Shown here: piece after piece, positions 13,470 through 25,823 of the stretch | Layout of the letters: each line of letters starts with the position of its first letter | Position numbering within the stretch: the stretch's first letter is position 1 | NCBI GenBank assembly: GCA_013298595.1 | Contig: JAAFIG010000002.1 | Location: 78,781 to 142,780 of the forward strand | Length of the DNA stretch: 64,000 nucleotides | Direction of reading: 5' to 3' | Source: Deinococcales bacterium | GTDB lineage: Bacteria; Deinococcota; Deinococci; Deinococcales; JAAFIG01 | Program-made: the position numbers and the translations under genes | The notes under the pieces: model-generated | Database searches by the model: none | What the model was told of the DNA's origin: nothing | What the model saw: the letters and a program-made list of their open reading frames with translations, nothing else

Positions 13470-13543
13470 AATATATACCACTTCGCAAAACTATTTCACT
13501 TAAAACTCGAATCAAGTCTATTAAACCTGACGGAGCGTTGAGT

Positions 13544-14239
13544 ATGAAAATCCGCATATCATACCGAGATATCCATGAGCAATATCATACTGAATTACCC
13601 CTCGAGCAATTACCAGTAATTGAACAACTACGATGGATACGACAAGAATGGTCACACAGTAAGCAAAACCACACCCCGTTAATGTTTTATTTCTCGAGCT
13701 TAAAACGATTAGTCTACTGTGAAAGCTATTTAGAAGCACAAACACTGCTGGATCTCGATTTTCGAGGTGAAACAAATTGTATCGTTGAACAACCATTTAT
13801 CTTACATTACAACAAGAAATTTCATATCCCCGATTATGTTCTACGGCAAGGTTTTACAACCATATTGATCAATGTTAAACCAAAAAAATTTCTTGAAACT
13901 CCAGAGAATATTACTGATTTTGCATTGGCATCTGAAGCAGCGCGGCAATTGGGCTGGATGTACCAAACTGTATCAGAATGCAATCCACAATATCTCGAAA
14001 ATATCAATTGGTTAGGTTCATTTAAGCACAGACCGTTTCAAGTTGAAACTTATGAAGTTGAGATTCTGAAGTATCTGAACCAATCATCAACGCTGCTCGA
14101 GTTGCTTAAACATTTCAAAAACGATTTCATCGTAAAACCAATAGTTTTCTATTTACTGTGGCATCGGCGTATTCAAACCAGTTTAGATCAGCGATTCTCA
14201 TTGCAAATGCCGTTATGGAAATCAACGGAGTATTCATGA
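13544..14239 (+). CDS. tnsA: TnsA-like endonuclease
   Basis: GGAG RBS. Restriction-endonuclease-like motif series CESYLE ... HIPDYVL ... ILINVKP (compare Tn7 TnsA E63/D114/Q130-x-K132). First gene of the tns operon. Its stop overlaps the tnsB ATG (ATGA). Confidence 0.75.
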   Translation: MKIRISYRDIHEQYHTELPLEQLPVIEQLRWIRQEWSHSKQNHTPLMFYFSSLKRLVYCESYLEAQTLLDLDFRGETNCIVEQPFILHYNKKFHIPDYVLRQGFTTILINVKPKKFLETPENITDFALASEAARQLGWMYQTVSECNPQYLENINWLGSFKHRPFQVETYEVEILKYLNQSSTLLELLKHFKNDFIVKPIVFYLLWHRRIQTSLDQRFSLQMPLWKSTEYS

Positions 14240-16314
14240 ATAAGTGGAACTTAGAGATTAACAATCTATATTTATGGTGTGATGAACACGTCAAACTAAT
14301 GCGATTTGTCAATCAACAAGTAATCCTCGAACGTGAAAATGGTCAAGTCATAACTATGAAGACTTCTGAATTCGTCAGTAAATATCCTATACCAGTCAAT
14401 GCTGATCCCTCCTTGATCATACAGCCAACGCCATCAATTTTTGACAATATCTCTAAATCAGCTCTTAAACAAGTTGACGTATTACAAGCTCACCTCGAGA
14501 TTGCAATTCACGGTATCGAACCAATGAATGAAAGTGAAACATGCTACGATGCAGAGTTAACCACGTTAACGTGTCGGATGAAAAAAAAGGCAGAAGAACT
14601 GAAAATGGATTTAAGCTCTTTCTGGCGAAAGAAAAAAAAGTATGAGCGATTTGGGCGATATGGTTTAATAGATCGTCGTTCATTACCGCTAGCACGCAGT
14701 AAACGCAATGATTCAGACCCAGTAGTCTTAACAATTGAAAAAGTACTGAAACAAACTATTGGTGCTTCTGATGTAACGAATATAATTCTATATAGAAAAA
14801 TCAAGAAACTATTGATACAAGACTATGGTGATACAGTCTCATTGCCATCGGTTGCGACGCTAAACAGATTATTAGCAGAAATAAGGCATCGATTAGGGAT
14901 ATATGGTAATGCTAATCAGCGTCAAAAATCTGCGCTAACACCTAAAAAACTATTTGGTTCTTTTCGTTCTACACACCCAGGGCAACTGGTAATGTTCGAT
15001 AGTACAAAACTTGATATGTTTGCACTCGACCCAATGAATAACGATTGGATTCAAGTTGCTTTGACTATTGCCTTTGATTTTTATTCTCGTTCAATTATTG
15101 GCTGGCGGTTCACACCTGTAGATACTAAAGGAGTAGATGCAGCTTTAGTTTTGTTTGATGTATTACATCCAAAAATTGCAATGCCAGATTGGGCAGATAT
15201 TGCTCATTGGAATTATTTTGGAGTACCAAGTGATATTCGCATTATTGAATACACCAATGATGATTCAAGCATACAGATTGCAGCTGTGCCATTTGTACAA
15301 CCAGATACAGTACTAATCGATCATGGCAAGGTTTTTATCTCGCATACATTTCAAGATGTTTGCACAAGACTTGGTATTCATATTCAACGAGCGCGTATCC
15401 GTCGTCCAACGGATAAATCGCCAGTAGAGAATGTATTTAAGCATATATCTCAGGATTTTTGTCAGCGATTGCCTGGATATAAAGGGCGCAGTATTGCTAC
15501 TAGAGGCATAGACATTGAAAAGAAAGCTTTTTATTACATTGAAGAAATCGATACGCTTTTTGCTGAATGGGTTGCGACTAAGTGGCAAAATCACATACCA
15601 AGATCGTTGCATTATCCTGCATCAGGAGCCGTTGAAGCTGATGTAACCCCTAATGATGCTTATACATTAGGTTTAACCCAAACTGGTTTTATACCGATAC
15701 CAAATCTGGTTTACTTCGATTGTCTTGAGACCGAATACCGTATTGTTAGTGAAAGTGGAATTACCATTCAATACCTTGAGTATGACAGTATTGAACTCGA
15801 GCCATTTCGTAATTATCCATCCGAGATTAGATCAGGCATTCATAAAGGAGATTATAGGATCAAAGCTGACCCACGAGACCGTAGTCAAATTTTTTTCTTC
15901 GATGAAATCCGCAAAACATGGATCACTATTCCGTGGCGTGGAAAACAGCATTTTTCACATCCATTTAGCGATCTAACACTTGCTTTTGCAAAAGCAACAG
16001 CCATTGAACATTTACATGGAAAAAAACCAACTAATGACGAAATTCGTTTTGCTTTGGAGGAAATGTATTCGCGTTGGGAGGCGAAAGAGTTTAGAACTCG
16101 CCGAGAGCGTCGTGTTGCTGCTCGAGATAAAATCCTAACCCAGCAAGCCCAAAAAGATCGTCTGCAAAAAAGTAAATCTACAGCATTAAATACTATTCCA
16201 GCAGCTGAGTTGAATCAATCAAATCAACCAATGATTCCAGAAGATATTAACGGTATTTTCAAGCGTTTTGACCAAATTAAAAGCTTGTATCAGGAGGATG
16301 ATGATGAGTTCTAA
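14236..16314 (+). CDS. tnsB: TnsB-like DDE transposase
   Basis: rve-type DDE triad context (LVMFDSTKLD, TVLIDHGKVF, DKSPVENVFKH). About 690 aa, with a Mu/Tn7-type architecture and an acidic C-terminal tail (YQEDDDEF). Confidence 0.85.
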   Translation: MNKWNLEINNLYLWCDEHVKLMRFVNQQVILERENGQVITMKTSEFVSKYPIPVNADPSLIIQPTPSIFDNISKSALKQVDVLQAHLEIAIHGIEPMNESETCYDAELTTLTCRMKKKAEELKMDLSSFWRKKKKYERFGRYGLIDRRSLPLARSKRNDSDPVVLTIEKVLKQTIGASDVTNIILYRKIKKLLIQDYGDTVSLPSVATLNRLLAEIRHRLGIYGNANQRQKSALTPKKLFGSFRSTHPGQLVMFDSTKLDMFALDPMNNDWIQVALTIAFDFYSRSIIGWRFTPVDTKGVDAALVLFDVLHPKIAMPDWADIAHWNYFGVPSDIRIIEYTNDDSSIQIAAVPFVQPDTVLIDHGKVFISHTFQDVCTRLGIHIQRARIRRPTDKSPVENVFKHISQDFCQRLPGYKGRSIATRGIDIEKKAFYYIEEIDTLFAEWVATKWQNHIPRSLHYPASGAVEADVTPNDAYTLGLTQTGFIPIPNLVYFDCLETEYRIVSESGITIQYLEYDSIELEPFRNYPSEIRSGIHKGDYRIKADPRDRSQIFFFDEIRKTWITIPWRGKQHFSHPFSDLTLAFAKATAIEHLHGKKPTNDEIRFALEEMYSRWEAKEFRTRRERRVAARDKILTQQAQKDRLQKSKSTALNTIPAAELNQSNQPMIPEDINGIFKRFDQIKSLYQEDDDEF

Positions 16315-17464
16315 ACCTAACTTGGAAGGTTTTGGCAACAATGAAACTGAAATGTATTTAGAAGAAGCTCCTATTTCGGAAATCAACAATTTTGATGAAT
16401 GGCTTCATTTTGTTTACGAACCAATATCAATTCGTCCCGATGTACCTACGCCCATAGAGTTTGCCGAAATGAGTCAAAAACAGAAAAAAAATTCGTGTAC
16501 ATTGCGTTTTCAGCATATTGCACGATTTCAACCGATTTCTACGACATCACGGAATAAAATCATTGATACCTTACTGCAGAGACTTCATGTGAACCGTATT
16601 GGAGGTCGTGGTGCTCGAGGAAGCGCTGTATTAACGGGCTACCCTTACATTGGAAAAACAACAATAGCTGTGGATATTGGCAGACGCTATGATCTTGATA
16701 TGCGGAAACTTCTCAAAAAGAGAACAGGTCAAGAACTTTTTATTCCAGAAACAAATGATCGCTTTATCCCTGTAATTTATGTGTGTTTAAGCAGCGAAGA
16801 TGTCTCCAACCTGAAAGCGTTGTATGCAACTTTTGCTCGATTCTTAGGTATACCAAAATATGAAAAAAAGACAACCAAACAACTCGAAGATGCTGTTGTT
16901 AAATGGGCGAAAGCTTGTCAAACAAGTTTTATCATCGTAGACGAAATTCATTATATTGATATTCGTTCGCGTGGTGTACGAAAAACCAATAATGCTATTA
17001 AAACACTGATGAATCGAATTCCTGCCACATTTTTATTCGCTGGGATTGAGTGTGAAAACACAGGAATCTTTTTTGACCATGACAGTGATCAAAAACGTAA
17101 AGCTGACCCAAGATTAGCGCAATTAAATCATCGCTGCTTAAAACTCGAACTAAAACCGTTTCAAAGTCTTTATGGTAATTATCAAGAAGGTATCAAACTT
17201 ATCAATACAATTGACCAAGAAATCGTACTAGTGAATCATCAAACAGGCGATTTGGTTCAACTAGCACCTTATATTCTAGCTAGAACAAATGGTCATATTG
17301 GAAGTATTCGGGATTTTATTTCACTAGGGTGTTATAAGGCTTTAAAAGAGAAAACCGAACGTCTCACCAAAGAGATATTAGAAGAAATTCAGCTTGATAA
17401 CGCGGCTGAAACAGCTTATCAAAATTATTTGGCAAGCAATCCACCCGCCCTCGAGACATACTAA
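16298..17464 (+). CDS. tnsC: TnsC/TniB-like AAA+ ATPase
   Basis: AGGAGG RBS inside the tnsB 3' end. Walker A GYPYIGKTT and Walker B FIIVDEIHY. Confidence 0.85.
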   Translation: MMMSSKPNLEGFGNNETEMYLEEAPISEINNFDEWLHFVYEPISIRPDVPTPIEFAEMSQKQKKNSCTLRFQHIARFQPISTTSRNKIIDTLLQRLHVNRIGGRGARGSAVLTGYPYIGKTTIAVDIGRRYDLDMRKLLKKRTGQELFIPETNDRFIPVIYVCLSSEDVSNLKALYATFARFLGIPKYEKKTTKQLEDAVVKWAKACQTSFIIVDEIHYIDIRSRGVRKTNNAIKTLMNRIPATFLFAGIECENTGIFFDHDSDQKRKADPRLAQLNHRCLKLELKPFQSLYGNYQEGIKLINTIDQEIVLVNHQTGDLVQLAPYILARTNGHIGSIRDFISLGCYKALKEKTERLTKEILEEIQLDNAAETAYQNYLASNPPALETY

Positions 17465-17477
17465 GCCTACGAGTCTT

Positions 17478-18626
17478 ATGAATAATCAACATCATCCACT
17501 CAACCGCCAATTTCCAAAGCGTGCCAATCTTAAAGCTGGTAATGCGTTGATTCCCCAATTGATCGAACTGGCTCGAGATTTGGAAATTACAACAGAAGAC
17601 TTATCAGCATTTCTCGAGGTCAGATTTGGGTTGGTACAAACAGCATTTGATCGTTTGCCATTCTTGACAACTCGAGAAATGGAGCAACTAGCACATGAGT
17701 TCGGCGTTTCAGTGCAAACGATAGAAGAAACCACCGCAGCCTATTTCTCGAGCAGAATTGGTACATCTCAGGATTCTGAACTACAGGAGCTTTTAGTTCC
17801 CTTTACCAAACGTCTTAAAGTATGCCCAAAGTGCCTACAAGAAAAACAAAACTACCAACTATCTTGGCAAGTTTCGTGGTCTTTTGTCTGTACTCGACAT
17901 CACGTTTTGCTCCAAGATATTTGTCCACACTGTGAGTATCCAATCGCTTCTAAACGTCGCACAACAGGCATTCCTGTTGAACATTTCCGCTGCGGTAATC
18001 ACATTGTCAACCAAAGTGTTTGCCATGAACGACTGGATCAACTTCCTCGAGTCTCTGTGGCAAACTACCCCGCAATTCTGAAAGCCCAAAATATTCTTGA
18101 AGCTGTTATCAATGGTAAATCGGTTTTGATATTTAACCAAACGGTTGTTCCGAAAGTGTTCTTGCAGAATTGTATTGCACTTCTTAAAATTCTTTGGGGA
18201 TTTATTGTGCCAGAACAGTTAGCCTCGGCTCCAATCAAATGCACAGGTGCATACCATCAATTTACCCGCGCTCGAGAAAAATATTTTCAATACCTCGAGC
18301 AGGAAAATCCGCTCGAGGACTCACCTGCTGCTATTTCTAGGCTTTGGGGAACACTTGATTTGATGACTGGCACAATGCCTTTGGTTTTAGAGATTCTTGC
18401 TTTATCCTCGAGACAAGCTATGGTGAATAGACTGATTGCCCTGATACAACAAAGCTGTTATCAAAGACCCCAATACCCACTTTGGATTTTGCAACACTTT
18501 GAACGACAAGCCATTGAAAATCACCATTGGATGTACACAATTAAGGAGTTGCAAAATTGGCTTAGAAGGACGTACTTTTTAAGAAAGGAGGTAGTGGCGC
18601 ATGTACCAAACCCTTATCCACTTTAA
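17478..18626 (+). CDS. tniQ: TniQ-family target-selection protein
   Basis: TniQ zinc-ribbon pattern CPKCLQEK...VCTRHHVLLQDICPHCEYPI. At 382 aa it is small-TniQ sized, like Cascade-associated TniQ. Its 3' end overlaps cas6 by 26 nt. Confidence 0.8.
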   Translation: MNNQHHPLNRQFPKRANLKAGNALIPQLIELARDLEITTEDLSAFLEVRFGLVQTAFDRLPFLTTREMEQLAHEFGVSVQTIEETTAAYFSSRIGTSQDSELQELLVPFTKRLKVCPKCLQEKQNYQLSWQVSWSFVCTRHHVLLQDICPHCEYPIASKRRTTGIPVEHFRCGNHIVNQSVCHERLDQLPRVSVANYPAILKAQNILEAVINGKSVLIFNQTVVPKVFLQNCIALLKILWGFIVPEQLASAPIKCTGAYHQFTRAREKYFQYLEQENPLEDSPAAISRLWGTLDLMTGTMPLVLEILALSSRQAMVNRLIALIQQSCYQRPQYPLWILQHFERQAIENHHWMYTIKELQNWLRRTYFLRKEVVAHVPNPYPL

Positions 18627-19173
18627 TCCTTCCTCTCCTCATGCTCAACGATTGCTAGACCAACCTTACCGAATCCACTACATGCTCGAGCATATTAATA
18701 CAAGTAGAACGCGAATATTATGGCGTTTAAGCGAAGATCGATTGCTAGTTAGGCATATTAACCCTCTTGACTGGACTGAACTTGATAAAACGCATCCAAG
18801 CCTTGGAGATAGAAGTCATACACAGGTGAACTTAGATTTGCCTTTGGGAACAATTCACCTGTTCAACTTGTTCGCGTTTATTTGTAAGCCAGATGACAAC
18901 GGAAAATGGAAAGTACAACAACCCAAACAGTATATTGATTGGCTTATTAAGCGTTCCAAACACATTGGTTTTGAATTACGTGAGATCCAAATCAACAAAG
19001 CCCCTGATCACTTTGTCCGAATGAACAGCGCTCAAATTAGAGCGCAGCCAATGAAGGTATCTGGAATTTTACAAATTACAGATACAACTGCCTTAATACA
19101 TAGTTTGGAAAGTGGAATAGGAAGGATGCGTGCTTATGGTTGTGGAATGTTAATATTGCAACCAATTGGATAA
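18601..19173 (+). CDS. cas6: Cas6e (CasE)-like crRNA endoribonuclease
   Basis: N-terminus MYQTLIHF...PYRIHYML (CasE has MYLSKV...LYQLHQGLW). C-terminus SGILQITDTTALIHSLESGIGRMRAYGCGMLILQP, against E. coli CasE EGVLTINDAPALIDLVQQGIGPAKSMGCGLLSLAP. Confidence 0.85.
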   Translation: MYQTLIHFNPSSPHAQRLLDQPYRIHYMLEHINTSRTRILWRLSEDRLLVRHINPLDWTELDKTHPSLGDRSHTQVNLDLPLGTIHLFNLFAFICKPDDNGKWKVQQPKQYIDWLIKRSKHIGFELREIQINKAPDHFVRMNSAQIRAQPMKVSGILQITDTTALIHSLESGIGRMRAYGCGMLILQPIG

Positions 19174-19193
19174 ATACTTAGAAACTTTATAAT
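19166..19193 (+). promoter_or_regulatory. Sigma70-type promoter for the CRISPR array
   Basis: TTGGAT (19166-19171), a 16-nt spacer, then TATAAT (19188-19193), about 25 nt before repeat 1. It overlaps the cas6 stop. Confidence 0.5.
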
Positions 19194-19218
19194 AGTGAAG
19201 TTTTGTCTGTTTCAAGCC

Positions 19219-19600
19219 GTTCTGCCCTCACGTGTAGGGGTCATCCGTAATTGCTGTAGTTGAAGTAAGAATTCTTGTAGTTCTTTCCTTACGTGTAGGG
19301 GTCATCCGCGAAACAGCTCTACAAAAACCATTGTTCCGCGTTCTTCTCTCACGCGTAGGGGTCATTCGGCGACGAACAGGTTTGATTTTCCAGATTCTTG
19401 AGTTCTTCCTTCATGTGTAGGGGTCATCCAATGTGAATAGAGTCATTGCACATATGTTACCGCGTTCTTCCCTCATGTATAGGGATCATCCGAAAGGAGT
19501 TGTGGAACGCCAAACCTCTTTCGGTGTTCTTCCCTCACGCGTATGGGTTATTCGGCTGCATCTAGCATCGTGTATTTCTCTCACGTATAGGGATCATCCA
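19219..19600 (+). CRISPR. CRISPR array, 7 x 29-bp type I-E-like repeats, 6 spacers (32, 31, 33, 33, 33, 17 bp)
   Basis: R1 GTTCTGCCCTCACGTGTAGGGGTCATCCG (19219). R2 GTTCTTTCCTTACGTGTAGGGGTCATCCG (19280). R3 GTTCTTCTCTCACGCGTAGGGGTCATTCG (19340). R4 GTTCTTCCTTCATGTGTAGGGGTCATCCA (19402). R5 GTTCTTCCCTCATGTATAGGGATCATCCG (19464). R6 GTTCTTCCCTCACGCGTATGGGTTATTCG (19526). R7 GTATTTCTCTCACGTATAGGGATCATCCA (19572). Confidence 0.9.
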
Positions 19601-19673
19601 GCACAAACACGAGTTCAAGTTTCATTGGGTACTTTTCTTTTCGTGAGAATCACTCTCTTCTAAGGTCTACAAC

Positions 19674-20858
19674 ATGAATCTACTATTTGATGCTTGGATT
19701 CCAACAACAAATTCACTTCAATCCCTTGTTTCAGTTCTTGAGAATGCAAATTCTTTGCAGCTTTTTTCTCGAGGAACTCAATTTGCTTCTATTTTGCGGT
19801 TGCTGCTGGCGATTTGTTATCAAAGTGGTGAAACCAGTCAAACATTAATACGAAATGGCATTAGTAATAAAACATTTAAGCATCTCGAGCAGTACAAAAA
19901 CGCTTTTGATCTTCATCATGGTTTTTTGACTTGCCCAGACCTTGATGCCGATTTGAGCACCATGGCAAAATTGATTCCGTTGTTACCTTCGGGCAATACC
20001 ATCGTTTTTTTTAATCATGCTCGAGATGATCAATTTCCCATTGTTTCTAGCGACGAACTAGCTCGTTATGTCCTTGATTATCATGCTTTTGCTGCCGCAG
20101 GAGGTCAAAGTGTAACTGGTTATCGTGGGCTTAGCCCTTGTGTTGATGTGGTTCTTGGGATAGCAATTGGAGAAACTCTACTCGAGACACTCGCCCTTAA
20201 TTTAGTACCTGATTCGCGTCTGCAAAGCGCAAGCTGGACACTTTCTCGAGTCACTAAACAAGATTTTCAAGATAATAGACGGCAGACAGCTGGAAGTCTC
20301 GCAGGGCAGTATTCATGGCTTGGGCAAGCAGTTCGGTTATTTGAGCATGGTGTTGGTACAGCCAAAGGCTTTAAATTACGCTTTGACTCTGACCCGATGA
20401 TGAGCAAAAAGATTGATCGAAATGGTCAACTAATAAGCTTTGTGCGTCCAGAGTCATTTGAGCCTATTCTTTTAGCTGCTCGACTGATGGGTTTGCAGTC
20501 TATTTGTGCAGCAACTTTTTCACATGCACAAAGTTTGGATATTCCTTTCCAGTGGCGAGTCATTTCGCAAGTCAGTTCTCCAACCCACAAAGTCAAAGTG
20601 CTTGAAACGATTGATTCGGTGTATTCACCACAAACCCTAGACCTTCAAACATTAGCTCGAGTTCTTGCCATTCGAGGCGAATTGGTAAAACACCAGTCTG
20701 AATTTGTGGCTCGAGCTTTTGTGTCTACTTTTGAGGATTTTTTAAGACTTAACCAAACTATTGAACTTGATTCGTTTGTAGAACAATACCCTTTTCAAAC
20801 GGATAATAAATTACTGGGGATACTTCGCAAATTAACTCGGAAGGCAATAGGTGAATAA
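19674..20858 (+). CDS. cas8: Cas8e (Cse1/CasA)-like large subunit, shortened (394 aa)
   Basis: N-terminus MNLLFDAWIPTT, against E. coli Cse1 MNLLIDNWIPVR. It sits immediately upstream of cas7 (3-nt gap). Confidence 0.7.
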   Translation: MNLLFDAWIPTTNSLQSLVSVLENANSLQLFSRGTQFASILRLLLAICYQSGETSQTLIRNGISNKTFKHLEQYKNAFDLHHGFLTCPDLDADLSTMAKLIPLLPSGNTIVFFNHARDDQFPIVSSDELARYVLDYHAFAAAGGQSVTGYRGLSPCVDVVLGIAIGETLLETLALNLVPDSRLQSASWTLSRVTKQDFQDNRRQTAGSLAGQYSWLGQAVRLFEHGVGTAKGFKLRFDSDPMMSKKIDRNGQLISFVRPESFEPILLAARLMGLQSICAATFSHAQSLDIPFQWRVISQVSSPTHKVKVLETIDSVYSPQTLDLQTLARVLAIRGELVKHQSEFVARAFVSTFEDFLRLNQTIELDSFVEQYPFQTDNKLLGILRKLTRKAIGE

Positions 20859-20861
20859 TTT

Positions 20862-22085
20862 ATGCTCATTGAAATCCACTGTATTCAATCGGTCCCTATA
20901 TCTCACTTGAATTCTGATAGAAATGGTCAACCCAAGACAGTCATGTACGGCGGTGTTCTTCGTGCCCGAATCTCGAGTCAAGCTCAAAAACGCAGTTTAA
21001 GGCTCTTTATTCATGAGCATGGGCTTTTAGATGTGCTGGATTTCGCGTATCGAACAAGGCGTTTTACGCAACTGGCTGCTGAAAAACTTGAAAAATTAGG
21101 TATACAGCAAACAGAAGCCCTAAATTTGGCAGTTCGTTCGATGGCTGCCCTCAAGCTTGGGCATAAAGAAAAAGCTAATGAGGATGACCCTGTACTGAAC
21201 GAATTCTTGATCTTTTTTTCAGAGTCAGAATTACAAGCGTTTGCCAATACAATTTATGAGCATCAGTCTGTAATCTCGAGAATCAACATGGATGTCCATA
21301 AAGAACTCGATGCTATAGACGCAGTTGAAGGCGAGAAGAAAAAACAAAAATCCAGTAAGTTGACCAAGGCTGAAATCAAATCGGCAATCAAAAAAGAATT
21401 CCCACTTGAGGTGATTAAAGCCCTACAAAACCCCTTTATTGAAACTCGTTCTCTTGAAATGAATTTATTGGGGCGGCAACTCACCAACTTTCCTGATGGT
21501 ACAGTAGATGGGCAAGTTCAAGTCGCCCATGCTTTTTCCGTGGATGAAAGTCGTACCACACAAGACTTCTTTACTGCTGTTGATGATTATGCCTTTAAGG
21601 GCATGACAAAAGTAGGTATGCTTGAAGAGATTGGCTTCAATGCACCAACACTATATCGTGTGGCTGCGGTTAACGTCTCTCAGCTTGCTGAAGCTTCTGG
21701 CGATCTTGCCGCTGCCAAACGCGGGGCTGCCGCTTTTTTAGAGGCATTTGTGTCCACATTAGCGCACGGTGGGCAAAACTCTTTTCTCAGCCTTACTGTT
21801 CCGAGTTTTGTATTGATCCAAATCGTTGATAAAGGTCATGCTTTATCGTATGCCCCAGCGTTTCTTAAACCTGTCCAAAGCAGCAAAGAGTTCAGCACTG
21901 CTGAGGCTGCTATTGTGCAGTTATCCCGATACATTGAATACCAAGAGGCTGCTTTTCCTCGATTTAAGCGTTCACACAAAGTATTTTTTAGTCAAACAGA
22001 TCAAGATTTCAAAGGTGCTAAACGAGTCATCGGAATTGACCAAGCAATCAAATTTATTCTAGGCAAAATCGGGGATGAAAAGTGA
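20862..22085 (+). CDS. cas7: Cas7e (CasC)-like backbone subunit
   Basis: IHCIQSVPISHLNSDRNGQPKTVMYGGVLRARISSQAQKRSLR, against CasC [50 protein letters not shown]...VDGQVQVAHAFSV....QDFFTAVDD, against LSGRMAT...VDGAMSIAHAITT....IDWFTAVDD. Confidence 0.85.
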   Translation: MLIEIHCIQSVPISHLNSDRNGQPKTVMYGGVLRARISSQAQKRSLRLFIHEHGLLDVLDFAYRTRRFTQLAAEKLEKLGIQQTEALNLAVRSMAALKLGHKEKANEDDPVLNEFLIFFSESELQAFANTIYEHQSVISRINMDVHKELDAIDAVEGEKKKQKSSKLTKAEIKSAIKKEFPLEVIKALQNPFIETRSLEMNLLGRQLTNFPDGTVDGQVQVAHAFSVDESRTTQDFFTAVDDYAFKGMTKVGMLEEIGFNAPTLYRVAAVNVSQLAEASGDLAAAKRGAAAFLEAFVSTLAHGGQNSFLSLTVPSFVLIQIVDKGHALSYAPAFLKPVQSSKEFSTAEAAIVQLSRYIEYQEAAFPRFKRSHKVFFSQTDQDFKGAKRVIGIDQAIKFILGKIGDEK

Positions 22086-22573
22086 AACAGGTTCGTCTTT
22101 GTTTGGAAGGTCTACTGCAAGCATGGGGCGTGGATAATGCGCTTCAGCGTCGCCGTACTCATAACCAACCGCAACGACGAACCGTTTTTGGATTGATTCG
22201 GGCTGCAAAAGGACTCAAACGACATGAATCTTGGGAAGCTCTCGAGACACTTGATTTCAAGTGTGAAATCCATAAAGCTGGGTATCGAATGTGGGATTTT
22301 GCTTCTATGTCTAATATTATTCGTGCCAATGGTGAAGGCATTCAAGACCAAGCTATTCAAGAAAAAGAGTATCTGGTTGATGCAGCATTCATAGTCACCC
22401 TAACAGGCAAAGATCAACTCATTGATGAAGTCATTGCCGCTCTCGAGGATCCTGTTTTCCTTTTAGGGCTTGGAAGGCGCGATTGTATGCCAACACAACC
22501 AATTTTGTCGAATTATGATGTTGAGATTGATTTAGTCAAAATGTCAAAGAAAGCCAAAACGTACACCATATAG
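22082..22573 (+). CDS. cas5: Cas5e (CasD)-like subunit, shortened (163 aa)
   Basis: GTG start overlapping the cas7 stop (GTGA). LCLEGLLQAWG...PQRRTVFGLIRAAKGL, KEYLVDAAFIVTL and LGLGRRDCMPTQP, against CasD LRLAGPMQAWG...PTRSGLLGLLGACLGI, REYLCDASFTVAL and YLGRRSCPLTHP. Confidence 0.8.
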   Translation: MKQVRLCLEGLLQAWGVDNALQRRRTHNQPQRRTVFGLIRAAKGLKRHESWEALETLDFKCEIHKAGYRMWDFASMSNIIRANGEGIQDQAIQEKEYLVDAAFIVTLTGKDQLIDEVIAALEDPVFLLGLGRRDCMPTQPILSNYDVEIDLVKMSKKAKTYTI

Positions 22574-22875
22574 TGTAAAACTCAAACTATCTAGATCACA
22601 CACTAGTGCCAATAAAGTCTTGATAGACCTAAATGCCGCTCAAAAGCCAGTATCCAAGTAGTCTGAGATAAGCCTGTTTTTAGAGGAAGATGAACTTCAG
22701 TCTGAAAGACCAAGAAAACGTAAACGAGCAAATTGAACAGGAAATTTTCTACGAGAAGTTGAAGTTTTCCTTAACCCCAAGACACACCTTATGAGTTAAG
22801 TAGGGGACTACAACCAAATGTTTGATGAGGAAGTTTATTCGCAGAATTGCTTTTGAGAATTAGAGCACTTAAAAT

Positions 22876-23166
22876 CTAACCACTACTGCTTTTTCGAGGT
22901 CGTTTATTGCTTGGGAATGGCATTACCAGTTCTTTTGCACTTGGCAAAGCTAATAGCTTTGCAATTGGTATCTGGAGCTGAGTGGATACTTGCATGATTG
23001 TCTCGAGGGAGGGATTGGTGCGTTTGGCATTTTCAGACTCAAGTATTTGGTATGTTCGCAAGGGTAAACCAATCAATTCGGATGCTTCTTCTTGGGATAA
23101 GCCTTTTTTTAACCGAGCTTTACGAATTCGGAGTCGAAAAGCTCGGAGGAAAGCAGCGTCAAACAC
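22876..23166 (-). CDS. XRE-family helix-turn-helix regulator
   Basis: LRIRKARLKKGLSQEEASELIGLPLRTYQILESE is a typical HTH_3 motif. It is divergent from the 23408 operon. Confidence 0.8.
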   Translation of the reverse strand: MFDAAFLRAFRLRIRKARLKKGLSQEEASELIGLPLRTYQILESENAKRTNPSLETIMQVSTQLQIPIAKLLALPSAKELVMPFPSNKRPRKSSSG

Positions 23167-23407
23167 AATGCTATGCTGCTCATTTTTATGGTATTTTGTA
23201 ACGATTCAAATTATGTCATAAAATAATCTGAGTTAAAATCTTGATTTGTCCCCAAGCACACAAATATGTTACAGTCCTTAAACCAAGCCAAACACATCAC
23301 CCAGATGTACAGGCAAAAGCTTTCCCAAAAGGTTCGCAACAGCTTCGCCCCTTCCAACGGGCAACAACCGAAGCTGTTGTTTTTATTTTCCCAAGGAGAC
23401 AAGCTCA

Positions 23408-23992
23408 ATGCCAAACACTCTCGAGACCAACAACCCCGATTATGAAGTACAAATCAACCAGCAATACCATGCTTTTCTGGTCTGTAACGTCTTCATTAAC
23501 GATTCTGGACGTGGTAAACAAGTACAAATCATCATCGAAGGTAAAGCTTACAAAGCTGTTGTCAGTGTTGAAGCATTACGTGTATCACCAAATTTAACTG
23601 GTCAATGGCGAGCTACTTTGCACATTCGTTGTAAACCCGATGGCACACTAGACAAAACCATGTCCCTAAGACGAATTCGGGCATTAAGCCCACAAACTAC
23701 TGATCAACCTGCTTTCTGGGCTTGTACAGGTGATGTTACCAGTATTGATGTAAAAACAGGCTTACTCAAAGTTCGTATTTATCCTGGTAGACGCAAAGCC
23801 AGTGTTTTTTCCTTATTCGTTCAAGCCAGTCCTATTGTGCTCGAGCAAATTTCCCAAGCGAAATTTGTGCATCTAACAGGAACACTCGAAAAGCATTCAT
23901 TGGTTGTGCAACATTTTGAACCTCGAGATAGTGTTGATGCTGTCTTACAGGGTTTGAATGAGATTGAATCTGACAGGAGCAGTCATAAATGA
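23408..23992 (+). CDS. Hypothetical protein, paralogue A of a duplicated pair
   Basis: Shares an ordered motif series with the next gene: YH.F(L/F)V, G.WRATL, FW...G.V, (V/I)R(I/V)YP, (F/Y)VH(L/M)TG..E...L.(V/A)Q..EP. No family recognised. Confidence 0.6.
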   Translation: MPNTLETNNPDYEVQINQQYHAFLVCNVFINDSGRGKQVQIIIEGKAYKAVVSVEALRVSPNLTGQWRATLHIRCKPDGTLDKTMSLRRIRALSPQTTDQPAFWACTGDVTSIDVKTGLLKVRIYPGRRKASVFSLFVQASPIVLEQISQAKFVHLTGTLEKHSLVVQHFEPRDSVDAVLQGLNEIESDRSSHK

Positions 23993-24705
23993 AATCTAAT
24001 ACAGTAGAAACACCAGTACTTCAATCCTTAGTAACTATCCCTGTTCTCAAGCCAAAAGGTTTGAACATCGCATATCAACATCATTTCTTTGTCCAAACCA
24101 ATATCACCATCAGAGACACCAGTCAAGCAACTCGAGTCTGGTTAGACCTAGACTCTGATAATGGTTCATTCCTAGCTCGAGTGCATTCTAAAGTCTTTGC
24201 ACAATGGCAAAAATCACATCCAGAGCAAAGCTCGGTCAATCTTTCTGGTGTATGGCGAGCCACTTTGTATGGTCAAACAATGCCAAATCAGTCCCTCAAG
24301 TCCTTACAGATAATTCGATTAACTCCTCTCGAGAATGCCATTGATCTGAATGGACAAAGTACCTTCTGGAGTGCAGCAGGTAAAGTCCTACGCTTAGACC
24401 GAGCTGAACGCATTGTAATCATTCGGGTGTACCCAAGAACCAAAGGGTTTGAACCATTTGTGATCAGTGCTAAAACCACCCTCGAGTTACTGAACCTAGT
24501 TCAAGATGCCTGGTATGTGCATATGACAGGTGTAGTTGAACAAGGGTACTTAATTGCTCAGAACCTCGAGCCAATGCGTTTAGATATTCCAAGCGTGTGG
24601 AAAGACTGGATTCCACCAAGTAAACGCAAAGTCATACTCGAGAATACCTTAAACAGTGAATCCAGTGACTCTTCATTGGATGCTGGTACAAATCTTGGAT
24701 TTTAA
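23989..24705 (+). CDS. Hypothetical protein, paralogue B of a duplicated pair
   Basis: ATGA overlap with the preceding gene, and the same motif series as 23408..23992. Confidence 0.6.
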   Translation: MKSNTVETPVLQSLVTIPVLKPKGLNIAYQHHFFVQTNITIRDTSQATRVWLDLDSDNGSFLARVHSKVFAQWQKSHPEQSSVNLSGVWRATLYGQTMPNQSLKSLQIIRLTPLENAIDLNGQSTFWSAAGKVLRLDRAERIVIIRVYPRTKGFEPFVISAKTTLELLNLVQDAWYVHMTGVVEQGYLIAQNLEPMRLDIPSVWKDWIPPSKRKVILENTLNSESSDSSLDAGTNLGF

Positions 24706-24710
24706 GGGGT

Positions 24711-25187
24711 ATGAGAATGAAACAAGCCTTAGTTTATCTTCAAGTCTTACAAAGTATCTTTGTTGTGGTTAATCGAATAAATACTCGAGCTAATGCAGTA
24801 ATGAACGTAGTGCACGTGGCATGGGAATTTTACTTAGCTATGCCAACACAAGATTTAGCGTTAGACGTGATTCATTTAGTGACGGTGCAAACAAGGAATT
24901 ATCGACAGGTGACCTATGGTATTTCAGTGCAAGAAATGAATCTAAATGTAGTAGAAAAACACTCAGTCGAATTTGCAAGGGATCTCGAAGAAGCGCTACT
25001 GACTTGTGTAACTCTTTTTGAATCTGACCAAGCTACTTCTGGTTTACGGCAAGTTAAAAGAAAGATCAAAATGAGTTTCGTGCTTAATGAACAATGCCAA
25101 TGGACTTTTAAGCACGCTTCTCAGCAAAGTAAAAGTGATTTATTACAAATTCTTGAATTTAGCATCAACCCCAAGGTTATCAAATGA
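24711..25187 (+). CDS. Hypothetical protein (158 aa)
   Basis: 6-nt gap after the preceding gene, and its stop overlaps the next ATG (ATGA). No motifs recognised. Confidence 0.5.
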   Translation: MRMKQALVYLQVLQSIFVVVNRINTRANAVMNVVHVAWEFYLAMPTQDLALDVIHLVTVQTRNYRQVTYGISVQEMNLNVVEKHSVEFARDLEEALLTCVTLFESDQATSGLRQVKRKIKMSFVLNEQCQWTFKHASQQSKSDLLQILEFSINPKVIK

Positions 25188-25516
25188 TGCGTGGTAAACC
25201 TGCTTACACATCGGAATTCAAACTCCGTATGGTTAAAGAAGTACTCGAGCAAGGTAAAAGACCCAGTGCCGTAGCTCGAGAACATAAGATTCTGGCTTCC
25301 ACATTGTTTTCTTGGCGGGCTTTGTATGAACGGTTCGGTGAAGCTGCGTTTACAATGGTTGAGCAAAGCAGTTTACTTGAGGTGGAGAACATCAATTTGC
25401 AAAAGCAACTCGAGCGATTAAAATCTCAGGAGATCGTTTTTGAGCGGTTACTGGGCAAAATGACGCTCGAGAATCATCGGTTGCGAGAACAATTAAGTCT
25501 GCGCCTATCTGTGTAA
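25184..25516 (+). CDS. IS3-family OrfA-like HTH/coiled-coil protein (no OrfB follows)
   Basis: YTSEFKLRMVKEVLEQGKRPSAVAREHKILASTLFSWRALYERFGE is the classic IS3/IS911 OrfA HTH_Tnp_1 pattern, followed by a leucine-zipper-like tail. No DDE OrfB or IS inverted repeats are visible downstream. Confidence 0.7.
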   Translation: MMRGKPAYTSEFKLRMVKEVLEQGKRPSAVAREHKILASTLFSWRALYERFGEAAFTMVEQSSLLEVENINLQKQLERLKSQEIVFERLLGKMTLENHRLREQLSLRLSV

Positions 25517-25630
25517 CAGTACAAATACCACAGCTCCAAAAGATAGCAATTGTTACTTTAGTAACAGTAAATAGGAGGAAGTTATAACATTTGGGTGAAT
25601 TAGGAGACTACGTCAAATACAGTATTTAGG
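25513..25630. repeat. Three spaced ACAGTA-AATA motifs (candidate TnsB-binding sites, right end)
   Basis: GTAACAGTACAAATAC (25513), TAGTAACAGTAAAT (25559) and CAAATACAGTATTTAGG (25614). The reverse complement of the second (ATTTACTGTTACTA) matches ATTTACTTGTACTA at 13447-13460 in 12 of 14 positions. Confidence 0.35.
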
Positions 25631-25644
25631 CAACTCTTACATAA

Positions 25645-25803
25645 TTTGATTCAAATCACTCTTATATGCAATGATTTGTGATGAATATACATTGTGTTTA
25701 ACGTAGATGGCAGTTACAGATTAAATGATTTTCTATAATGTTATAGAAAATCATTTGATCTGCAACTAAATCACTGTATATAAGAGTGACTTGAGAGTAA
25801 ATC
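25645..25803. repeat. Long imperfect palindrome (inner 22-bp arms, outer arms with an ~35-bp asymmetric insert)
   Basis: Inner arms: CAGATTAAATGATTTTCTATAA (25717-25738), tg, TTATAGAAAATCATTTGATCTG (25741-25762), with 1 mismatch. Outer arms: TCACTCTTATAT (25656-25667) against ATATAAGAGTGA (25778-25789). Confidence 0.8.
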
Positions 25804-25823
25804 AAGCTACTTGAGAGTAAAAC
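25789..25823. repeat. Tandem 20-bp-period direct repeat at the candidate right terminus
   Basis: ACTTGAGAGTAAATC (25789-25803) and ACTTGAGAGTAAAAC (25809-25823). Read on the other strand, the terminus is TGTTTTACTCTCAAGT followed by TGATTTACTCTCAAGT. Confidence 0.6.

Follow-up and report, generated by a model that had tools for sequence, protein, structure and literature searches.

What a CRISPR array may be for, when no two of its repeats are identical and one of its spacers measures only 17 bp, is the question raised by the locus considered here. It lies in a 64,000-nucleotide stretch of a Deinococcales bacterium (assembly GCA_013298595.1, contig JAAFIG010000002.1, positions 78,781 to 142,780 of the forward strand; henceforth the window), which is chromosomal, with rpoB and rpoC at 52.9-61 kb. 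We consider it highly probable that this is the guide array of a Tn7-like CRISPR-associated transposon (CAST) combining a type I-E Cascade with a TniQ selector, that its last repeat-spacer-repeat unit (R7-S7-R8) is the one that homes, and that the 17-bp spacer S6 is a deletion scar.

Seven 29-bp repeats, R1 to R7, start at 19219, 19280, 19340, 19402, 19464, 19526 and 19572, with start-to-start distances of 61, 60, 62, 62, 62 and 46 bp and the consensus GTTCTTCCCTCACGTGTAGGGGTCATCCG. A profile built from these seven repeats recovered each of them at E = 5e-8 to 3e-6 and nothing comparable in the rest of the window. R1 to R7 span 19219-19600, and the array including a degenerate eighth repeat spans 19219-19657, between cas6e (18601-19173) and cas8e (19674-20858). 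Its parts are:

19174-19218, + strand: leader with candidate promoter (TTGGAT 19176-19181, 16 nt, TATAAT 19198-19203)
19219-19525, + strand: R1 to R5 with spacers S1 (19248-19279), S2 (19309-19339), S3 (19369-19401), S4 (19431-19463) and S5 (19493-19525)
19526-19554, + strand: R6, the most damaged repeat, in which G19>T breaks the stem internally; 5' handle GTTATTCG
19555-19571, + strand: S6, 17 bp, GCTGCATCTAGCATCGT
19572-19600, + strand: R7, an atypical repeat with intact stem, whose 3' end ATCATCCA would give the 5' handle of the homing CRISPR RNA (crRNA)
19601-19633, + strand: S7, the predicted homing spacer, GCACAAACACGAGTTCAAGTTTCATTGGGTACT
19634-19657, + strand: R8, the degenerate terminal repeat (TTCT 19635-19638, loop TTTCGTG, AGAA 19646-19649, then TCAC)

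Spacers S1 to S6 are 32, 31, 33, 33, 33 and 17 bp long and S7 is 33 bp. A preliminary description of this DNA, made from the sequence alone, had placed the array between cas6 and cas8 and had given the same lengths for S1 to S5 (31-33 bp) and S6; its statements that all seven repeats differ, that they form the look-alike sets R1/R2/R4, R3/R6 and R5/R7, and that R6 and R7 are the most atypical are likewise borne out. No identical pair exists, and differences to the consensus range from 1 to 6, with 4 in R6 and 6 in R7. The range of 2-7 pairwise differences given there has to be corrected to 3-10, and the 17-bp spacer is not terminal as had been claimed, since S7 and R8 form a real eighth unit after it. 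The weak segment after 19633, suspected of being a degenerate terminal repeat, does carry the repeat hairpin in register, and the unit is kept in the closest related locus, L012. The promoter described as near-consensus is present, with a perfect -10 element and a leader partly kept in L012, but its -35 element agrees in only 3 of 6 positions, so that a consensus promoter scan makes no call on it. Tandem Repeats Finder gave no report at the array because the spacers are unrelated to each other, and Rfam held no match for it.

Repeat sequences have diverged around a conserved hairpin. Of the 40 cells that R1 to R8 give for the five pairs 6-22, 7-21, 8-20, 9-19 and 10-18, 37 are paired, compared with 15-28 of 40 when the 3' partner is slid. 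In R8 the hairpin is in the same register as in R1 to R7, with a 7-nt loop and two stem pairs changed from C-G to U-A in a compensatory manner; its counterpart in L012 reads TTCTC/GAGAA followed by TCAC. R6 is the sole repeat with an internally broken stem, its predicted fold retaining merely 3 bp, and it also carries two changes in the 8-nt 5' handle. Among the 22 substitutions in R1 to R7, 19 are transitions and 17 replace GC by AT. The 5' arm has four changes at positions 7-9; each is C>T, so that RNA of the + strand retains a G-U pair, while the pair-breaking mirror change, G>A at 19-21, does not occur once. With modest support, resting on four events, this suggests that the repeat differences are mostly GC-to-AT drift in an array that does not turn over, filtered by selection for hairpin and 5' handle.

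The array is embedded in a set of genes that all point in the same direction and follow the order tnsA-tnsB-tnsC-tniQ-cas6e-[array]-cas8e-cas7e-cas5e:

13544-14239, + strand: tnsA, 231 aa, TnsA-like endonuclease subunit (NCBIfam NF033179 116 bits, cut-off 110; weak Pfam Tn7_TnsA-like_N match)
14158-16314, + strand: tnsB, DDE (rve-type) transposase, start codon uncertain (Pfam rve 27 bits, below gathering score)
16268-17464, + strand: tnsC, AAA+ regulator of the TniB family (Pfam TniB 43.8 bits, above the Pfam cut-off; AAA_22 46.5 bits)
17394-18626, + strand: tniQ (Pfam TniQ 48.9 bits, cut-off 27)
18601-19173, + strand: cas6e (CasE/Cse3), repeat-hairpin endoribonuclease (PF08798 97.5 bits; TIGR01907 51.7, cut-off 45.2)
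19674-20858, + strand: cas8e (Cse1), short 394-aa form (Pfam Cse1 91 bits; NCBIfam casA 57.8, cut-off 70 not reached)
20862-22085, + strand: cas7e (Cse4/CasC) (TIGR01869 193.6, cut-off 178)
22082-22573, + strand: cas5e (CasD) (TIGR01868 76.7, cut-off 68.95)

The assignment of tnsB was aided by synteny in all relatives, and window positions 14890-19206 share 75% DNA identity with tnsB-cas6 of L012. The type I-E effector set of Cas8e, Cas7e, Cas5e and Cas6e is thus present, with Cas7e, Cas5e and Cas6e matching above the NCBI type I-E equivalog cut-offs. Domain scans of the element's open reading frames (ORFs) and of 28 other window ORFs, a set that does not comprise every small ORF, detected no cas1, cas2 or cas3 and no cse2 gene for Cas11, and the window Cas8e has no Cas11 part. 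This agrees with the preliminary description, which had seen an array not visibly acquiring spacers and lacking cas1-cas2 in a CAST context. The window Cas8e aligns to residues 21-375 of P0010, a 554-aa Cse1-Cse2 fusion; in the distant family members P0010, P0012 and P0014 Cas8e measures about 550 aa, two of them with a faint C-terminal Cse2 domain. The coexistence of long fused and short forms implies that the family covers fused-Cas11 and Cas11-less types.

A search of 5.8 billion proteins yielded 16 homologues of the short window Cas8e. The related contigs are L001-L005 and L012-L021; setting aside the duplicates (L013, L005/L016 and L021), they represent twelve distinct loci, namely L001-L005, L012 and L014-L020, with L005 and L016 being the same element. 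L001-L005 are metagenome-assembled genomes (MAGs) of Deinococcales and the remaining loci are metagenome or MAG contigs. All twelve have the same gene order, whole or as far as the contig reaches, always with a short array between cas6e and cas8e. Arrays were read in eleven distinct loci and the duplicate contig L021, that of L018 by eye only; they hold 3-9 repeats and spacers of about 27-35 bp, and in every one the repeat following the homing or last spacer is atypical. The L018 array has a 25-nt repeat and 28-35-nt spacers, small indels being common in this sub-clade. L012 is the closest relative of the window element, with a Cas8e that is 83% identical and cas8e-cas5e DNA that is 84% identical.

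In L012 (8834-9732; also in L013) an insertion sequence with DDE_Tnp_1 and DUF4096 ORFs sits within the first repeat and parts the leader from the other four repeats. L020 (3640-4230) and L021 (695-1225) carry the same element with nine near-identical repeats, yet are exactly one repeat-spacer unit apart, the spacer CCAGCACAGACACAAGCGTTCCCGGAAGGGAA being found in L020 only. Spacers have thus been lost or gained at the population level although the element has no cas1-cas2.

Each array was compared with its own locus. At eight loci a spacer in last or second-last place has a match on the + strand, 146-309 bp upstream of tnsA, beside the following protospacer-adjacent motifs (PAMs):

L012: 28/33, PAM AAG
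L001: 24/32, PAM AAG
L004: 26/32, PAM AAG
L015: 27/33, PAM AAG
L016 (the L005 element): 29/32, PAM AAA
L017: 23/32, PAM AAG
L019: 24/33, PAM GAG; a second spacer matches the same site at 23/32
L002: 20/30, PAM AAG

The tally of AAG six times and GAG and AAA once each is dominated by motifs that are known from E. coli, where AAG and GAG are interference-proficient type I-E PAMs. When 2000 shuffled spacers per locus were scored against the 450 nt upstream of tnsA, none equalled the observed homing score, except for 1 of 2000 at L002, where the match is good over roughly the first 17 nt only. In protein-coding targets the mismatches fall mostly at multiples of 3 (in L001 at 3, 6, 9, 15, 18, 21 and 27), which is the signature of a guide to a conserved coding sequence that has later diverged at synonymous sites. 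The last spacer of L014 was not counted as a homing guide, its match being only 22/32, lying 700 bp from tnsA and having no AAG PAM.

Two arrays contain two diverged copies of the homing spacer, L019 (6505-6537 and 6567-6598) and L003 (2262-2293 and 2383-2414); both copies in L019 match the 3' end of the ORF directly upstream of tnsA (L019 34-68). Such doubling could be a way to home into diverged hosts. In the window, L012, L004, L015 and L002 the homing spacer is preceded by a repeat whose last base is A (...CCA|spacer), where G is usual; L001, L016 and L017 lack the terminal A, and the same A ends window R4 and L015 R3, both of which precede non-homing spacers (window positions 19600 and 19430 are the ends of R7 and R4).

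The target of the L012 spacer is the 3' half of a tRNA-Glu(CTC) gene at 2845-2920, comprising T arm, acceptor strand and discriminator base, behind AAG. The tRNA terminator hairpin ends near 2959 and similarity to the right-end segment of the window element begins at 2975, which together place the start of the L012 element between 2960 and 2975, i.e. 43-58 bp past the protospacer. Window S7 is identical to the terminal spacer of L012 in 31 of 33 positions, and the stretch from the R7 handle ATCATCCA through S7 to ...GGGTAC shows one base difference between the two elements; the adjoining repeats and spacers, by contrast, have diverged further than cas8e-cas5e. The 3' part of R7 is identical to R4 of L012, and the whole R7-S7-R8 unit is kept there. 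By analogy with the relatives, R7-S7-R8 (19572-19657) is thus best regarded as a conserved homing unit flanked by atypical repeats and probably aimed at the 3' half of tRNA-Glu. A division that makes S7 a 28-mer, with R8 starting from 19629 (GTACTT...), is ruled out by the end of the L012 spacer: it ends ...TGGGTACA, readable as tRNA acceptor strand plus discriminator base, so that S7 is a true 33-mer. The principle put forward in the preliminary description, that atypical repeats mark the homing guide, therefore holds, but it had been applied to the wrong unit, the guide being S7 between R7 and R8 and not S6.

For S1 to S5 no protospacers were found in the window, the related loci, or phage, plasmid or viral collections, the array producing only matches at E >= 0.4 against phage and plasmid collections. 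Seed-style patterns in which positions 6, 12 and 18 were left free gave zero matches to IMG/VR for S2 to S5. S1 matched one viral lineage (L024-L026) in 22 of its first 23 nt; overall agreement is 23/32, the last 9 nt hardly matching, and the flank is TTT, not AAG. This match was regarded as possibly fortuitous.

The termini of the window element are unusual:

25651-25738, - strand: left end with TnsB-site-like repeats and terminus near 25738; pairs with the right-end segment as inverted repeats twice over 27 nt, at 93% and at 89%
25739-25811, + strand: outer part of the cognate right end, in displaced position; 87% identity with L012 2975-3034, in the right end of that element

Left end and right-end segment abut with 0-2 bp between them, and the right-end segment does not lie upstream of tnsA, where 74 bp (13470-13543) separate tnsA from a host-like 953-aa AAA/TPR ORF. 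Mis-assembly as the cause of these odd ends was rejected, since short-read assemblies made independently from two sequencing runs give both junctions exactly: that of the right-end segment with a host epimerase gene in L022 and that of tnsA with the upstream ORF in L023. The host genes found downstream of the element in L012 are those upstream of it in the window. No target-site duplication was identifiable at the window element, and none of the locus sequences examined for the relatives contains a left end. The end pattern would fit a circle in which left and right end had joined and which was then opened within the right end, or else tandem copies that later underwent deletions; as a weaker possibility, the abutted junction may record a circular form of the element. 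Permuted ends would explain why neither a tRNA-Glu gene nor a protospacer is found nearby.

The 17-bp unit, which had been suggested to be functional, is most likely what remains, behind a damaged repeat, of an approximately 32-bp spacer after a deletion of about 14-16 bp, and is as such presumably non-functional. L012 has a full 32-bp spacer at this position, and the alignment sets a 14-nt gap at the S6/R7 boundary, where the first bases of R7 are aberrant as well (GTAT vs GTTC). A functional short homing guide, of the mini-Cascade type or in the style of the ~17-nt V-K guides, would be in keeping with the divergence of the two repeats that flank S6, with the short atypical homing spacers on record for I-F3c, I-B4 and V-K systems (bioRxiv 10.1101/2021.08.16.456562), and with the L002 homing match that is good over about 17 nt only. 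However, neither the window nor 327 kb of related loci holds a match to S6 that exceeds noise (best 14/17, while shuffled spacers reach 15), and the L012 attachment region offers 11/17 at best, so that the proposed search for a target near an insertion site of the family came out negative. No spacer near 17 bp occurs in the twelve related arrays read (including duplicate L021), and while the known short homing spacers stand behind the last canonical repeat, S6 has a complete conserved unit after it. R6, which would provide both handle and processing site for S6, is the very repeat with the broken stem and the two handle changes, and the 15-16 nt by which S6 falls short do not divide into whole 6-nt steps of Cas7 in I-E Cascade. 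The proposed comparison with viral data returned one exact 17/17 match in IMG/VR, inside a recA/UvsX-like gene; it belongs to a single viral lineage with a low GC content (33-35%) that occurs in seven metagenomes (L027-L033). The 5' flank of the match is TAT, not AAG, and the match is not significant and probably due to chance, as two composition-matched control 17-mers gave 0 and 1 lineage. Comparison with relatives, offered as a further check, yielded the 32-bp spacer of L012. Altogether, we consider a functional S6 guide very improbable.

Three further explanations concern the state or origin of the array as a whole. This copy may be a fossil that has been rearranged and has lost its usable right end, its repeat divergence and short spacer being signs of decay; this agrees with the proposed CAST assignment for the family and disputes present activity only. 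The right-end segment beyond the left end, the lack of a nearby tRNA-Glu, the confirmation of both unusual junctions in independent assemblies and the preponderance of GC>AT among the repeat substitutions point in this direction. Yet all eight genes are full length relative to L012, stem changes are biased to those preserving pairs, and S7 with its handle is nearly invariant, which argues for selection until recently; moreover, another copy could still be acted on in trans by its proteins and guides. We regard a fossil as quite possible, if on balance doubtful. Rather unlikely, in our view, is that the repeat heterogeneity itself is selected, either because it prevents recombinational loss of spacers that are irreplaceable, loss being irreversible in CASTs without cas1-cas2, or because it ranks guides in favour of the homing crRNA. 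The pair L020/L021, with near-identical repeats and loss of exactly one unit, would fit this, as would L001, in which loops differ in every repeat and stems are constant, and the atypical repeat by which the homing spacer is followed throughout the related arrays read; but L004, L015 and L020 keep near-identical repeats, showing that heterogeneity is not required, and the mutation spectrum resembles ordinary AT-biased drift. That the array is a degenerate orphan of an ordinary type I-E defence system merely adjoining transposon genes is so improbable as to be nearly negligible: the repeats are indeed I-E-like (29 nt, hairpin, handle ending CCG) and cas1, cas2 and cas3 were not found, but the layout with the array inside the operon recurs with tnsABC-tniQ in twelve distinct related loci, of which eight have self-matching spacers placed and oriented as CAST homing guides.

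Several observations nevertheless weigh against the proposed CAST array with a homing R7-S7-R8 unit. The sequence upstream of the window tnsA shows no significant similarity to a right end (local score 19 vs a shuffle mean of 17), and with no recognisable right-end sites there, this copy may no longer be able to move. The 64-kb window contains no tRNA gene, and a scan of S1 to S7 against it stayed at noise level (best 22/33, shuffles 22-23), in line with the by-eye finding of the preliminary description, so that homing is shown only by analogy with the relatives. Even the L012 spacer has five mismatches to its own tRNA-Glu, one of them in the seed at position 3. The repeat hairpins, at -1.8 to -5.9 kcal/mol vs -15 for E. 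coli, are weak, which means that processing by Cas6e is not assured. Finally, S6 is identical to the L012 spacer at the same position in 7 of 17 positions, counted by eye, so that their homology is not demonstrable and the deletion is inferred from length and alignment only.

The gene set suggests how the system could operate. The array would be transcribed with, or just after, tniQ-cas6e, the transcript running into cas8e. Cas6e would bind each repeat hairpin and cut at its 3' base, releasing crRNAs predicted to begin with a 5' handle of 8 nt (consensus GTCATCCG), followed by about 32 nt of spacer and, at the 3' end, the hairpin. Cas8e, Cas7e, Cas5e and Cas6e may then assemble on the crRNA, with neither Cas11 nor Cas3 encoded, and the complex would bind DNA beside an AAG-type PAM. 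Via TniQ and TnsC, TnsA and TnsB would be directed to insert the element about 45-60 bp past the target on its PAM-distal side, the right end being the one closer to the target. R7-S7-R8 would act as homing guide for the tRNA-Glu 3' half, and S1 to S5 are candidates for ordinary guides.

The properties of I-F3 CASTs (Tn6677/VchCAST family) have been summarised (bioRxiv 10.1101/2021.08.16.456562). The window element resembles them as a Tn7-like element with tnsA-tnsB-tnsC-tniQ, a Cas3-less Cascade, no detected cas1-cas2 and a short array; in the relatives, as in I-F3, the 3'-most spacer between atypical repeats matches a conserved chromosomal site, mismatches are tolerated at codon third positions, and insertion lies a fixed distance of about 50 bp past the PAM-distal end with the right end proximal. 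Unlike I-F3, the effector consists of Cas8e, Cas7e, Cas5e and Cas6e (type I-E), the PAM is AAG/GAG rather than CC, the array with its 29-nt I-E-like repeat sits between cas6 and cas8 rather than after the cas genes, and the hosts are Deinococcales MAGs rather than Proteobacteria.

A 'type I-E CAST', I-E5, has been described for telomeric TnsBC transposons of Streptomyces (Hsieh et al., bioRxiv 10.1101/2024.11.13.623437) and is listed in PMC12669027. I-E5 has no TniQ, a TnsBC that is not Tn7-like, a Cas3 with intact nuclease site, and long fragmented arrays upstream of cas3, with no protospacer beside the ends (bioRxiv 10.1101/2024.11.13.623437). The two systems share a type I-E Cascade coupled to TnsB/TnsC genes and the absence of cas1-cas2; in contrast to I-E5, the element described here has TnsA and TniQ, no Cas3 was found, and protospacers adjoin the right ends of its relatives.

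With V-K CASTs the family shares homing downstream of a tRNA gene and a homing guide set apart by an atypical repeat. It differs in having a class 1 array where V-K systems use Cas12k and tracrRNA without TnsA, and in that the tRNA-directed guide is a full 33-nt spacer rather than one of about 17 nt, the 17-bp spacer not being the one that matches. Short atypical homing spacers measure 20 bp in I-F3c, are 6-23 bp under normal in I-B4 and are also short in V-K (bioRxiv 10.1101/2021.08.16.456562). For I-F3c and I-B4 a 'mini-Cascade' has been proposed (Rybarski et al.); these lie behind the final canonical repeat, and the DNA that they match is about 64 bp away from the element end. Like them, S6 is a much shorter spacer beside atypical repeats in a CAST array, but it is internal, has no match above noise and is absent from relatives.

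The canonical type I-E repeat of E. coli K-12 has 29 nt with a 7-bp stem and a 4-nt loop, alternates with spacers of 32-33 nt and is served by the PAM AAG and also GAG. The present array agrees in repeat length, stem-loop, an 8-nt handle ending CCG and spacers of 32-33 nt, as well as in PAM usage (AAG, with GAG also used) as read from the relatives; it departs from the canonical form in a 5-bp stem with a 7-nt loop, the absence of identical repeats, the failure to find adaptation genes, the position of the array inside the effector operon and the lack of Cas11.

The 2025 CRISPR-Cas classification (PMC12669027) recognises class 1 CASTs derived from I-F, I-B, I-D, I-C, IV-A and I-A; Tn7-like CASTs are listed from I-F, I-B, I-D, I-C and IV-A and none from I-E, the only I-E entry being the TniQ-less, Cas3-bearing telomeric form. 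No published TniQ-bearing Tn7-like type I-E CAST was found in targeted literature searches, which did not cover most subscription journals. The element hence appears to be an undescribed, TniQ-dependent type I-E variant of the CAST kind. Whether it further represents an active, undescribed lineage of TniQ-dependent Tn7-like CASTs in Deinococcales MAGs that arose by independent capture of a type I-E Cascade we see as evenly balanced. Such a lineage would work without Cas11, use AAG/GAG PAMs and rely on its terminal spacer to home into tRNA-Glu or into conserved genes at their 3' ends. With the array inside the operon, between cas6e and cas8e, cleavage of the degenerate last repeat by Cas6e would complete the homing crRNA and at the same time free the cas8e-cas7e-cas5e message. 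RNA-guided transposons are few, and a TniQ-dependent Tn7-like I-E element would amount to another independent capture event, in which the rule that the last spacer with an atypical repeat is the homing guide would recur in yet another lineage. To our knowledge, I-E Cascade is the best-understood Cascade, and a compact Cas11-less effector with an AAG PAM would lend itself to comparison with I-F3 and possibly to engineering. For the array itself, the analysis corrects which unit matters and provides a directly testable target, the tRNA-Glu 3' half with AAG PAM.

The remainder of the element and its surroundings have features of their own. Downstream of cas5e lies the following region:

22876-25516, no overall strand: small cargo region with a minus-strand HTH regulator (22876-23166), three ORFs of unknown function and an HTH_Tnp_1 protein (25184-25516)

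Two ORFs of this region are common to the window and L012. In two relatives the cargo is of defence type: L014 (13365-21161) encodes two DncV-like nucleotidyltransferases, an SLFN/AlbA_2 protein and an Upx-like giant protein, and L016 (13669-21671) a PLD-SNF2 helicase with DUF1156, DUF499 and DUF3780 and a HigB-like toxin. The palindromes CCGCGG, CCCGGG, ATGCAT and AGGCCT are wholly absent from the window. CTCGAG occurs 298 times vs 11.8 expected from base composition, a 25-fold excess, with 44 copies within 13544-25738, and this palindrome is also frequent in the related loci.

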